From IMG/VR virus record IMGVR_UViG_2711768001_000013: a DNA stretch of 38,859 nt. The stretch is one strand, 5' to 3'. The stretch is from a virus. Lineage: Duplodnaviria; Heunggongvirae; Uroviricota; Caudoviricetes. How positions within the stretch are numbered: the first letter of the stretch is position 1; each line of letters starts with the position of its first letter. The notes beneath the pieces are model-generated. The model searched no databases, had not been told where the DNA came from, and worked only from the letters and a program-made list of their open reading frames with translations. Shown here piece after piece: positions 30,949-32,825 of the stretch. The translations under genes were made by a program, and so were the position numbers.

Positions 30949-31763
30949 CCCCTGAATCCTGCCGGGATCTGGCTGTAGTCCACGTTGTCGTAACTGGCTT
31001 TGAAGTACGGGTCCTCGCGTCTGGCTGCAGATACCGCAGGAACTTCCCAGAATTCTTCGAAATGACGATCCGGACCAAAGAACGTGACAGCCTGTTTCAC
31101 AAATTGTGTGCCGCTGTTACCCATCGCAGATACCCATCCCGCGTAGCGTTTCACACCTTCCAGCATGGTTTCGGGGTTTACTCCCTCATTCAAACGGGCT
31201 TTCCAGGCTTTGAAGGCTGCAGATTTTGAATTGCCACCAGCACGTTTGGGATATGCCAGCCATGCCTGCTCAAACTCCGGAGAGTATTCCGGTCGGTTTG
31301 AACGAACTCGCACGGACTCATCAACTGATGCACCAACAGCTATTGGTTCATTGACTGGTTCTTTGACTGGTTCAAAAGAGTGACTGGTTCTGGGTGAATC
31401 TCCTGCACTACCCCCTGGTGCAACTCCTGCACTACCTGGTGAATTTGCTGCACCAGATAGTGAATTATTTGCACTACCCCCTAGTGAATCTCCTGCACCA
31501 TCCAGATGAAGGAGATAGATATTACTTGAGTTACCTTTTTCACCTTTCCGGGTGACTTTTTTTACCAGCCCGGACTCACAAAGGGCCGCAATATGATTCA
31601 TCACAGAACGTTTGCTAATTTCGCACTGGTCAGCAATATGCTGGTAGCTGGGCCAGCACTCACCCTGATCGCTGGCATTATCAGCCAGCTTGATCAGAAC
31701 CAGTTTTCGCAATGGATTACCCACTCGAATTTTCATCGCTTTAACCATCAGCTCCATACTCAT
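30945..31763 (-). CDS. replication initiator (O-like, winged-helix N-terminus)
   Basis: N-terminal wH (LRKLVLIKLADNASDQGECWPSYQHIADQCEISKRSVMNHI); gene contains iteron-like DNA repeats. Confidence 0.65.
   Translation of the reverse strand: MSMELMVKAMKIRVGNPLRKLVLIKLADNASDQGECWPSYQHIADQCEISKRSVMNHIAALCESGLVKKVTRKGEKGNSSNIYLLHLDGAGDSLGGSANNSLSGAANSPGSAGVAPGGSAGDSPRTSHSFEPVKEPVNEPIAVGASVDESVRVRSNRPEYSPEFEQAWLAYPKRAGGNSKSAAFKAWKARLNEGVNPETMLEGVKRYAGWVSAMGNSGTQFVKQAVTFFGPDRHFEEFWEVPAVSAARREDPYFKASYDNVDYSQIPAGFRG
31360..31500. repeat. iteron-like direct repeats inside the O-like gene (candidate ori)
   Basis: tgactggttc three times, and repeated ctcctgcactacc / cactaccccctRgtg / gtgaatctcctgcac units; followed by an AT-richer stretch. 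Confidence 0.5.
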
Positions 31764-31996
31764 GCTGCACCTCCGAGATGCTTCATGTTTTTTCCGGAGC
31801 GAAAGGCTATAAGCGGCATACTGACGCGGTAATTACGGCCCAGCGGTTCACAAATCACCTTCTGGCATTCACGGTCAACCAGGCTAACACGTAGAACATG
31901 CCCTGCAGGCGTGGTGTACCACTGCCCAACTGTAGGAATTGATATTTTTTTACGCTGAAGCAAACGGCAAATATTGAGGATCAACGGATTAAGCAT
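31760..31996 (-). CDS. hypothetical small protein
   Basis: 78-aa ORF whose start and stop both overlap the neighbouring genes by 4-8 nt. Confidence 0.35.
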   Translation of the reverse strand: MLNPLILNICRLLQRKKISIPTVGQWYTTPAGHVLRVSLVDRECQKVICEPLGRNYRVSMPLIAFRSGKNMKHLGGAA

Positions 31997-32825
31997 GACG
32001 ATGCCCTCCGCTGATATTCAGGAGACGGTGAATATGAAAATTAGCCTTATCCGCCAGACGAATACGTTCAGCTTGCAAGTTAAGAAGGGTTTCTACCAGA
32101 ACCTGATGTGCCTGCGGATCCGAAAGAGTTACCTTGCGCAGAGCACGTAGTGCAGTTGTTACATAACTGAGTTTATGTAAGTCTTCATCATTCAGACGAG
32201 TGAGGGCTGGGACAGTAGCCATGATGGCAGCCTCCTTGATCGGTGAAATACTTCCACCACCGGAAACGCCAATTTCGCTGGTGGTGAACTGAACGGGGTT
32301 GGCGTAACCGGTGATCAAGGAAACCGGCGCATCTTTCGATGCCCCCGCCCAGCCCACCATAACTTTGATGTGAGCAAATGCGGACGATAAAAAAGACGCT
32401 GGCGCGTCATATATCGCCTTGATCAATTCCAGGACGCCAATCCCGGCACCCGCTTTATAAGGTGCCTGAACAGTGTAACGTCCCGGAATGGCAGAATCAA
32501 TGTGCTGGTGGTCCTTCACACTCAACAAAATCACGCCTGAATTTCCACAAAGGACTAAAGCACTCATGCGGGTAGTCTTTGCGAAGATAGATAACGCGCT
32601 GTGTTTCTGGCTCCCAACGAATAACATGAACATAAAGTCCTCTTCCGTCACGAAACCAGCGGTTAAGTTCCTGCACAACTCGCCCCCCACAGTCAGGTAA
32701 AGTTCTCTGTGGTTACTTACAGCCAGGTGATTTGGTAATCTGCATTCATGCCGTAACAACAGGTGTTCAGCGACGCTGACCACCAGCTGTTGCGACAAAC
32801 GGTTATTTGCCGTTAAACTGTTCAT
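31989..32825 (-). CDS. hypothetical protein, no family recognised
   Basis: 278-aa ORF with ordinary composition, in the early-right operon between the CII-like and O-like genes. Confidence 0.5.
   Translation of the reverse strand: MNSLTANNRLSQQLVVSVAEHLLLRHECRLPNHLAVSNHRELYLTVGGELCRNLTAGFVTEEDFMFMLFVGSQKHSALSIFAKTTRMSALVLCGNSGVILLSVKDHQHIDSAIPGRYTVQAPYKAGAGIGVLELIKAIYDAPASFLSSAFAHIKVMVGWAGASKDAPVSLITGYANPVQFTTSEIGVSGGGSISPIKEAAIMATVPALTRLNDEDLHKLSYVTTALRALRKVTLSDPQAHQVLVETLLNLQAERIRLADKANFHIHRLLNISGGHRHA

Follow-up and report, generated by a model that had tools for sequence, protein, structure and literature searches.

A likely IsrK–C4 antisense-RNA cassette in an SfV-like lambdoid prophage, between the ymfM/DUF4222 genes and the replication initiator

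The immI region of phages P1 and P7 (c4–icd–ant) encodes a C4 RNA with two recognition elements, the targets of which are duplicated as a1b1 and a2b2, with b2 lying over the ribosome-binding site of the small first gene, icd. The c4 RNA blocks the ant ribosome-binding site and sets the heteroimmunity of P1 and P7 (PMC12197685). The immunity region of phage P4 is ordered seqA–CI RNA–seqC–kil/eta–epsilon–alpha. The P4 immunity factor is an RNA, and the CI RNA stops replication-gene expression in the lysogen (PMC4825925, PMC3632133). An ‘IsrK-C4 immunity system’ has been described for P4 as well as for some of the lambdoid prophages of Salmonella (PMC3632133). In Gifsy-1 the order is PisrK-isrK-orf45-anrP, a processed stable RNA is made, there is homology to P4 seqA/CI, orf45 is conserved at the nucleotide and not at the amino-acid level, and the IsrK sRNA activates downstream translation in trans (PMC4825925). 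In the e14 prophage of E. coli K-12 (ymfL-ymfM-oweE), a CII-like gene is followed by an ATGA-coupled ymfM start and by a DUF4222 ORF in the −1 frame; ymfM ends 9 nt short of the initiator ATG, which is overlapped by DUF4222.

We analysed a window of 38,859 nucleotides (IMG/VR record IMGVR_UViG_2711768001_000013), by which we mean the whole stretch of DNA. It is approximately 99% identical to Shigella phage SfV (orf36–orf39). The initial annotation had described two unassigned ORFs between the CII-like gene and the O-like initiator, each overlapping its neighbour by 4-8 nt. Both are indeed present on the minus strand, as are all features described below, and the overlaps measure 4, 8 and 4 nt. 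Specifically, the ATG of the 278-codon ORF (31989-32825) overlaps the stop of the CII-like gene, ymfL, by 4 nt (ATGA), the 278-codon ORF shares its last 8 nt with the 78-codon ORF (31760-31996), and the latter shares 4 nt with the O-like initiator (30945-31763). Strong Shine-Dalgarno sequences precede the 78-aa gene (GGAGGG, 7 nt upstream) and the O-like gene (GGAGGT). The ORFs can be assigned, as they are the same genes as SfV orf37 (‘ash family protein’) and orf38 and match existing families (Pfam Phage_ASH, phrog_3960 and, for the 78-aa gene, phrog_1153).

We consider it likely that this interval is an antisense-RNA cassette of the P1-c4, P4-CI and Gifsy-1-IsrK type, located between ymfM/DUF4222 and the initiator of an SfV-like lambdoid prophage. 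The 278-aa ORF is mostly not a protein gene. It is a composite frame over an RNA switch and small genes, crossing from 5' to 3' a ymfM-like start, a DUF4222 gene, a promoter-like site, an IsrK-like RNA, a C4 RNA and a nested 77-aa gene. The original picture of two genes had overlooked the nested gene, both RNA genes and the DUF4222 gene, which lies in a different frame; the single gene proposed for the 278-aa frame gives way to this composite, which includes a terminator, and the 78-aa ORF stands as a real gene (pN/pS 0.14). On DNA that is 100% identical, the NCBI pipeline calls a 181-aa ‘ash family protein’ and a 59-aa DUF4222 gene in a different frame. Protein-coding behaviour in the own frame of the 278-codon ORF is confined to its last 77 codons (pN/pS 0.16). 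The frame is disrupted upstream of DUF4222 in two of 162 close relatives (L007 and L013) and is open in nearly all. Searches of PDB sequences with the long ORF, DUF4222 and the 78-aa family gave no significant match.

The first part of the long frame (32677-32825) is ymfM-like. Its ATG, with a GGAG 10 nt upstream, and its MNSLT N-terminus are common to e14 ymfM and approximately 35 relatives, and similarity to e14 YmfM (32%, E 7e-8) lies mainly within the portion overlapped by DUF4222. Of the features of YmfM/SfiC, the start at the CII-like stop and the DUF4222 overlap are present and the stop before the initiator ATG is absent, so the long frame continues into the RNA cassette. In the window lineage the first 50 codons show pN/pS values of 0.59 and 0.77, without clear selection; in the commonest lineage selection acts on the ymfM half in its own frame (0.46 versus 1.1). 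The 59-aa DUF4222 gene (32497-32676) is read in the −1 frame with respect to the long ORF, has a GTG start with a G-rich Shine-Dalgarno-like run ahead of it, matches Pfam PF13973 with 51.1 bits (cut-off 27) and is annotated by PGAP. Homologues of approximately 59 aa occur in Citrobacter and Kosakonia with up to 64% identity. At 32497-32676 pN/pS is 0.11 in the DUF4222 frame, versus 1.74 in the long frame and 3.38 in the third, which supports DUF4222 as the sole frame under purifying selection there; across species its value is 0.26. A G6 run had raised the idea that DUF4222 is reached from ymfM by a programmed −1 frameshift; this was set aside, as every lineage has its own DUF4222 Shine-Dalgarno sequence and start (ATG, GTG or TTG).

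Comparison with related enterobacterial prophages shows that the conserved occupant of the position between the CII-like gene and the initiator, translationally coupled to the latter, is DUF4222. In approximately 30 of them, including e14, only ymfM/DUF4222 is found in this interval, and DUF4222 overlaps the initiator start. Among the relatives compared, the Ash region and the 78-aa gene occur at this interval only in the window type and in one from C. braakii (L171). The earlier suggestion of inserted cargo is therefore right in outline, the interval of the approximately 30 relatives being free of both.

Downstream of DUF4222 we identified a promoter-like site (32472-32500) with a −35 of TTGATT (32495-32500), a 17-nt spacer and a −10 of TACACT (32472-32477); the DUF4222 stop codon falls within the −35 hexamer. 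The hexamers match the consensus at 8 of 12 positions, below the threshold of a promoter scan. Both are invariant across 35 distinct upstream contexts, and it is at about the −35 that homology among unrelated contexts begins. Six nucleotides separate the −10 from the 5' end of an IsrK-like leader RNA (32389-32465; Rfam RF01394), the equivalent of P4 seqA, which matches the full model (1-77 of 77) with 64.2 bits (gathering score 50). The leader contains one copy each of the C4 targets, a1 (32434-32441) and b1 (32417-32425), and ends in an intrinsic terminator, found independently of the Rfam match, that is composed of a hairpin at 32395-32408 (GACGCGCCAGCGUC) and a U6 tract at 32389-32394.

The C4-type antisense RNA (32277-32364; Rfam RF01695), the equivalent of P1/P7 c4 and P4 CI, is encoded in tandem with the leader on the coding strand, 24 nt away, and matches the full model (1-87 of 87) with 82.3 bits (gathering score 45). 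Its fold comprises a long closing stem and two inner hairpins; when 13 diverse sequences including P4 CI were compared, 13 of its 27 pairs were compensated by double changes and none was broken. The recognition loops are b' (UCCUUGAUCA, 32312-32321) and a' (UACGCCAA, 32299-32306). As can be read directly from the sequence, a' is complementary to a1 and a2, and b' to b1 and b2, where the downstream targets (32231-32273) are a2 (AUUGGCGU, 32266-32273) and b2 (GAUCAAGGA, 32233-32241). No further GATCAAGGA sites were found elsewhere in the window. The b2 site overlaps the Shine-Dalgarno sequence of the nested gene, AAGGAGG (32231-32237), which precedes the ATG at 32222 by 8 nt. Nine specificities were distinguished, among which the C4 loop changes in concert with both of its targets; the natural loop types include UCCUUGAUC and UCCGAUAAC. 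Cognate b'-b2 pairing reaches 9.2 of 10, versus 6.1 when permuted, and cognate b'-b1 pairing 8.8 of 10, versus 5.6; in both cases none of 20,000 permutations reached the observed value. In one type (L125) a', a1 and a2 also co-vary. The tight covariation shows the b'-b2 pairing itself to be under selection.

The nested gene (31989-32222) encodes a 77-aa protein (MATVPALTRL...GGHRHA) and has its Shine-Dalgarno sequence within the C4 target site. Its ATG is invariant and the Shine-Dalgarno-like purine run is conserved in all types; M96 and E92 are invariant in 25 diverse sequences. The product matches only phrog_4908 and phrog_3960, families without an experimentally assigned function, and has no similarity to P4 Kil. 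Sister prophages carry a Rha/Ant-like protein in the same slot, and such an antirepressor is the first cargo in most relatives. The 77-aa cargo is atypical for the module, which counts against the cassette reading. By analogy with the known systems, this gene probably occupies a cargo slot under C4/b2 control. The 78-aa gene that follows has a predicted SH3/Tudor-like barrel structure, a fold also present in the C-terminal domains of UvrD/PcrA and in CarD. A W-[YF]...G...V...PL motif common to both families, and their identical position before the initiator, had given rise to the idea that it is a DUF4222 paralogue. This was rejected (hhalign probability 1.2%, BLASTP E 0.014, no Pfam match at E ≤ 10), the two proteins being compatible only in their general small-barrel fold. 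The 78-aa family is likewise distinct from P4 epsilon (PF25738; hhalign probability 0.1%).

The locus thus shares features with each of the described systems. As in P4, the same two Rfam families stand in the same order upstream of a replication gene, a long ORF (ORF137 or ‘Ash’ in P4) crosses the RNA, and the next gene overlaps its end by 8 nt. Unlike P4, the phage is lambdoid and additionally has a CI/Cro protein switch, the cargo proteins are unrelated to P4 Kil or epsilon, and the spacing from leader to C4 is 24 nt rather than approximately 108 nt. With P1/P7 immI the window shares a C4 RNA with two recognition elements, the duplicated target pairs a1b1 and a2b2, and a small first gene (73 aa for icd, 77 aa here) with b2 over its ribosome-binding site, in a different genomic context. 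Loop differences define P1/P7 heteroimmunity (PMC12197685), and the window family comprises nine specificities, compared with two in P1/P7. Resemblance to the Gifsy-1 locus isrK-orf45-anrP-isrJ of Salmonella (Hershko-Shalev et al. 2016, PMC4825925) extends to the lambdoid prophage host, the IsrK RNA with its intrinsic terminator, which is leaky in Gifsy-1, the stable RNA STnc1160 at the position of C4, a downstream region conserved at the nucleotide and not the amino-acid level, a coupled downstream gene and, in the sister prophages of the window, a Rha/Ant-like protein like AnrP. The window differs from Gifsy-1 in that its first cargo is a 77-aa helical protein and not an antirepressor, it has a conserved 78-aa gene after this cargo, its orf45-like frame forms an in-frame fusion with the cargo as well as with ORFs further upstream, and the cassette, rather than lying next to antQ, is part of the early right operon, immediately before the replication genes. 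The e14 prophage has the CII-like gene, the ATGA-coupled ymfM-type start and the −1-frame DUF4222 ORF of the window; it lacks the IsrK/C4 cassette, the 77-aa gene and the 78-aa gene.

Two explanations would make proteins, and not RNA, the core of the interval. The 278-aa ORF could be a genuine regulatory protein of the Ash family, a transcriptional regulator or antirepressor, with the RNA matches being secondary. It matches Pfam Phage_ASH (PF10554) with 67.8 bits (gathering score 26) over aa 117-210, PHROG families in this group are labelled ‘transcriptional regulator’, and IsrK has been interpreted as derived from the ASH protein domain (PMC8825220). The frame is open through the RNA module in all eight types despite approximately 50% amino-acid divergence, with indels in multiples of three, and Gifsy-1 orf45, which corresponds to the same region, is translated (PMC4825925). 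From these two observations some translation across the RNA region is likely, and it may matter. We nevertheless regard an Ash protein as very unlikely. The match overlies the RNA module, and there between-type pN/pS, from a codon-aware alignment, is 0.91, compared with 0.16 in the 77-aa gene, 0.14 in the 78-aa gene and 0.07 in controls: the ‘Ash domain’ frame does not evolve under purifying selection as a protein. Where it varies, the positions coincide exactly with the loops and targets of the RNA, which co-vary as base pairs, a finding that supersedes our consideration of diversifying selection on a protein encoded by the hypervariable middle. The conserved ‘protein motifs’ IMVGW, PVQFTTS and EAAIMAT correspond to the C4 closing stem and the Shine-Dalgarno-to-ATG stretch of the nested gene, the ORF contains an intrinsic terminator as well as a conserved promoter-like site, and its AF2 model is disordered (pLDDT 34, from a shallow alignment). 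All 20 diverse Ash loci tested have isrK and C4 under the protein match. The P4 ‘cI ORF137’, the eponym of the Pfam family, itself contains the CI RNA, and immunity in P4 is conferred by RNA (PMC4825925, PMC3632133). Ash has also been stated to be the P4 epsilon antirepressor (PMC8628076), an equation we reject, as epsilon is PF25738 and PF10554 matches ‘cI ORF137’; BLASTP of the long ORF against P4 epsilon gave E 1.6.

The other explanation, raised in the initial annotation with YdaU-like proteins in mind, is that both products serve the O-like initiator as replication accessory proteins, for instance a loader adaptor or an origin-remodelling factor. The genes are directly upstream of the initiator and translationally coupled, the barrel predicted for the 78-aa protein resembles the fold in UvrD/PcrA and CarD, and the ‘Ash’ region also lies upstream of the primase in P4 and in the PICI EcCIMP1. 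Against this, neither ORF matches a replication family in Pfam, PHROGs, NCBIfam or PADLOC, where the neighbouring O-like protein matches HTH_36, DnaD_N and phrog_270; PADLOC defence models gave no match for either ORF. The approximately 30 relatives with a homologous initiator have neither gene, and a Rha/Ant-like antirepressor can take the place of the first cargo. The 78-aa gene tracks the RNA module, being present in 74 of 80 loci retrieved through it, including 13 without detected initiator or other anchor genes in the ±1.5-kb flanks, and is absent from DUF4222/initiator loci that lack the module. A replication role for the two products is accordingly highly improbable. On our reading, the cassette belongs to the already known P1 c4, P4 CI and Gifsy-1 IsrK kind and is not a replication accessory.

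How the cassette might operate is suggested by P1, P4 and Gifsy-1. A constitutive module promoter would give rise to the leader and, by read-through, to C4. Pairing of C4 with a2/b2 would then block ribosome binding at the 77-aa gene, and polarity from the blocked gene may reduce expression of the 78-aa gene and perhaps of the replication genes. Such a block would be effective in the lysogen and also against incoming phages that share its C4 type, and a1/b1 of the leader could serve as a competing decoy or a structural switch able to relieve it. The two small genes downstream are, on this analogy, probably controlled by the RNA switch. Because IsrK of Gifsy-1 activates in trans, the net effect here could be activation instead of repression. 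It is possible, if on the whole unlikely, that a Gifsy-1-like mode is dominant, with the IsrK-like RNA a trans-activator and C4 repression minor; we view with the same reserve the proposal that the transcript would be remodelled, the orf45-equivalent (ATG at 32358-32360) translated and ribosomes carried into the cargo genes. The RNA families and their order match the Gifsy-1 locus, the mechanism of which is backed by mutants and compensatory mutants, C4 has a conserved ATG at its 5' end (M50 is invariant), and in the window the orf45-equivalent frame enters the cargo gene, as it is reported to do in S. dysenteriae (PMC4825925). However, b2 is placed directly over a strong, conserved Shine-Dalgarno sequence shortly before the nested ATG, the arrangement for repression of P1 icd/ant, and the tight b'-b2 covariation points to selection on the pairing of the C4 loop with b2. 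Activation of the Gifsy-1 kind and C4 repression are not mutually exclusive.

A more doubtful proposal is that the long frame is kept open on purpose and, linked to this, that ymfM and DUF4222 form a true dual-coding pair, either product of which may be SfiC. The frame starts at the CII-like stop, crosses DUF4222 in the +1 frame and in this phage then passes the module promoter, the IsrK terminator, C4 and its targets. After induction, ribosomes entering from the early operon would read across the terminator hairpin and the sites targeted by C4, so that lytic transcripts would be blind to the RNA immunity and the path to the replication genes would open. Transcripts from the module's own promoter, being untranslated upstream, would remain repressed. 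P4 eta provides a precedent, of which such a translation-gated long frame would be the lambdoid counterpart.

The identification of an RNA cassette at this locus has consequences for annotation. The label ‘ash family protein’ (PF10554 and several ‘transcriptional regulator’ PHROGs) is applied in thousands of enterobacterial genomes to a stretch whose core is a translated IsrK-C4 RNA module. Work in which PF10554 served to mark a protein, such as P4 epsilon, needs to be re-read, as does the inference that an sRNA evolved from a protein domain. The overlapping ymfM/DUF4222 pair in the cII-to-O interval bears on the identity of SfiC, the SOS-inducible division inhibitor of E. coli K-12; the 2018 screen did not map the filamentation activity of ymfM to the level of fragments. 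An RNA immunity cassette of the P4/P1 type is placed directly upstream of the replication genes in SfV-like and Stx-converting lambdoid phages, and its co-varying specificities, at least nine in E. coli, constitute a natural series for RNA-based heteroimmunity.

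We identified a series of overlapping genes in this interval, on the minus strand like every gene of the region: a CII-like gene (32822-33385; Pfam Phage_CP76, NCBIfam YmfL), a 278-codon ORF (31989-32825), a 78-codon ORF (31760-31996) and an O-like initiator gene (30945-31763; HTH_36/DnaD_N, phrog_270), followed by genes for PerC, Dam and a protein with a LexA DNA-binding domain. The initial annotation correctly described both central ORFs and their overlaps (4, 8 and 4 nt), but they are not unassigned, as it had stated, because the stretch has matches in Shigella phage SfV (orf36-orf39, 99% identity), in a prophage of E. 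coli A14 (100% identity) and in other E. coli, with related DNA in 3040 of 5426 complete genomes. The LexA-domain gene (29478-29804) closes the replication/Dam operon and shares 4 nt with the Dam gene. Its 108-aa product has the DNA-binding domain only, without the S24 peptidase domain, and might mimic LexA without being cleavable.

The larger 'gene' is mainly an RNA regulatory cassette of a known type plus a hidden DUF4222 gene. Pfam Phage_ASH, a small family (228 representatives at 50% clustering), matches amino acids 117-210 of the long ORF. The middle of the matched segment is hypervariable: prophages that are otherwise nearly identical fall into eight types at 50-77% amino-acid identity, with a pN/pS of 0.91 in a codon-aware alignment. 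In an Rfam scan, two models matched the coding strand over their full length: C4 antisense RNA at 32277-32364 (82.3 bits against a gathering score of 45) and IsrK RNA at 32389-32465 (64.2 bits against 50). The C4 fold comprises 27 pairs, of which 13 show compensatory double changes and not one is disrupted. An intrinsic terminator, also located by an independent scan, forms the end of the IsrK-like RNA. P4 immunity is RNA-based, and P4 carries the same C4 and IsrK pair, ordered as in the window, inside ORF137. Upstream of the RNA start lie a -35-like TTGATT, a 17-nt spacer, a -10-like TACACT and a further 6 nt. Homology between ten or so unrelated upstream contexts starts at TTGATT, and neither hexamer varies across 35 contexts; the site matches the consensus at only 8 of 12 positions and was not called by a promoter scan.

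The C4 loop b' (UCCUUGAUCA) is complementary to b1 in the leader (UGAUCAAGG) and to b2 downstream (GAUCAAGGA), the latter overlapping a Shine-Dalgarno sequence, AAGGAGG, 8 nt upstream of an in-frame ATG at 32222. The second loop, a' (UACGCCAA), is complementary to AUUGGCGU at both a1 (leader) and a2 (downstream). No further target of GATCAAGGA was found elsewhere in the window. Nine b' specificities occur in 47 module haplotypes, and b1 and b2 change along with b': cognate pairing is 8.8 (b'-b1) and 9.2 (b'-b2) of 10 positions, against 5.6 and 6.1 when permuted, and none of 20,000 permutations reached the observed pairing. In one type (L125), a', a1 and a2 have changed jointly.

Alignment of 25 diverse Ash-domain segments, through which 80 loci were retrieved, traced the domain's invariant 'residues' to the C4 stem, the Shine-Dalgarno sequence and the nested ATG. 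IsrK and C4 lie exactly beneath the protein match in all 20 sampled Ash-domain loci. Seven sampled loci (L211, L216, L222, L223, L229, L240 and L275) carry two tandem modules, on the same strand and a few hundred bases apart (for example 1543-1731 and 1912-2094 in L222); their loops differ from each other, which suggests stacked specificities. Sequence shared between IsrK and ASH domains was reported previously and taken to mean that the protein gave rise to the sRNA (PMC8825220); our selection and covariation results favour the reverse reading. We also considered whether the eponymous P4 Ash protein is epsilon, the helper derepression protein, and rejected this identification. In this part of P4 (L164, 7888-8584), epsilon belongs to Pfam 'Derepression' PF25738, and PF10554 'Ash' matches the old 'cI ORF137', which adjoins epsilon and contains the CI RNA. 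Thus, what a survey of P4-like satellites scored with PF10554 as its epsilon marker (PMC8628076) was probably the IsrK-C4 region.

The long ORF ends in a 77-codon segment (31989-32222) with a Shine-Dalgarno sequence and ATG of its own and a pN/pS of 0.16. The 77-aa product matches only PHROG families with no tested function and shows no similarity to P4 Kil. In this slot, about 45 of the 162 close relatives and the majority of diverse loci carry a Rha-family, Ant-like protein instead. The 78-aa ORF (pN/pS 0.14) has homologues in Enterobacteriaceae only; its confident predicted model (pLDDT 80) combines an N-terminal helix with an SH3/Tudor/KOW-like barrel, for which structural neighbours are generic only, and its identity as DUF4222 or epsilon was not demonstrable. 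This ORF belongs to the cassette and not to the replication module, since 74 of 80 RNA-module loci have it and none of 31 DUF4222 loci without the module does. Of the initial proposal of inserted cargo or replication accessory proteins, the cargo part stands, relative to e14-type relatives, and the accessory part falls. A mosaic exchange point (window 31927-32198 and the equivalent stretch in L084-L163) begins where the RNA module ends and reaches about codon 23 of the 78-aa ORF. The alternatives exchanged are the 77-aa helical cargo and a Rha/Ant-like cargo of about 185 aa, and the N-termini of the 78-aa protein alternate to match (MLNPLILNICRLL versus MIRNIFKRF). Type L140 combines the tail-type cargo with an RNA region like that of types usually carrying Rha.

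The SfV annotation keeps the 278-aa ORF whole, as orf37. For identical DNA, the NCBI pipeline starts a 181-aa 'ash family protein' at an internal ATG (32534) and adds a 59-aa DUF4222 protein in another frame (32497-32676). The latter is a real gene concealed within the long ORF, because it matches Pfam DUF4222 (51 bits), has homologues of about 59 aa in Salmonella, Citrobacter and Kosakonia with identities as low as 64%, and gives a pN/pS of 0.11 in its own frame versus 1.74 in the long frame (162 close IMG/VR relatives). DUF4222 also occurs in a 70-75-aa form (L174, L194, L196, L197, L199 and L201) that overlaps the initiator ORF by 43-49 nt, versus 10 nt; the ymfM frame at these loci still stops at the unchanged relative position.

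In E. coli K-12 e14, ymfM, annotated as a cell-division inhibitor, follows ymfL and resembles the long ORF in its ATGA-coupled start and in the DUF4222 ORF overlapping it in the -1 frame (L003:5823-6181; window 32497-32825). The e14 DUF4222 ORF has its own AAGGAG Shine-Dalgarno sequence and a TTG start, and its frame is the one under purifying selection. In 37 loci, drawn from about 20 enterobacterial species, a ymfM-type frame opens at the CII-like stop and extends through DUF4222; at most of these loci its end lies 9 nt short of the initiator ATG, and DUF4222 ends just past that ATG. When DUF4222 codons were shuffled synonymously, the ymfM frame remained free of stops in only about 5% of shuffles; all 33 distinct sequences, representing 21 clusters below 85% nucleotide identity, keep this frame open, and the third frame always contains stops. 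The half of ymfM outside DUF4222 shows own-frame selection (0.46 versus 1.1), and where the two overlap, constraint acts on DUF4222 alone (0.26 versus 1.40). ymfM and DUF4222 form a pair of overlapping genes. No clear constraint is seen on the first 50 codons of the long ORF in the window lineage. Two of the 162 close relatives (L007 and L013) have a frameshift or stop, equivalent to window ~32680-32720, that separates the ymfM-like 5' part from the rest, so the prophage sequence can persist without the full 278-aa product. The published ymfM/SfiC assignment used the whole ymfM ORF cloned in pBAD24, and we found no frame-specific control in that paper. As the clone spans all of DUF4222 except the last 6 codons, filamentation could be due to either product. 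Contigs labelled Vagococcus sp. WN89Y (L192, Firmicute) and Geobacteraceae MAG (L200, Deltaproteobacterium) carry enterobacterial-type ymfL-ymfM/DUF4222-initiator prophage sequence, and these labels likely reflect contamination or mis-binning.

The anatomy of this interval corresponds to that of the P1/P7 c4-icd-ant operon (PMC12197685), the P4 seqA-CI-seqC region (PMC3632133, PMC4825925) and the Gifsy-1 isrK-orf45-anrP locus (PMC4825925). We infer that the leader is most likely made from the module promoter and C4 by read-through and processing, and that C4 pairing with a2/b2 most likely blocks translation of the 77-aa cargo gene and, through polarity, affects the 78-aa gene and perhaps the initiator. 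The a1/b1 copies in the leader would compete for C4 or switch the transcript structure, and specificity would be set by the b' loop. What the data above show directly are the RNA genes, the loop-target complementarity, its covariation and which segments are coding; the direction of regulation, the RNA processing, the polarity and the roles of the cargo are predictions. Because the Gifsy-1 leader RNA activates in trans (PMC4825925), activation stays live as an alternative or complement to repression by C4.

These analyses show that a protein annotation which has spread widely describes a translated RNA module. The nine C4 specificities provide a natural series, and the ymfM/DUF4222 overlap adds a third contribution beside the module and that series.
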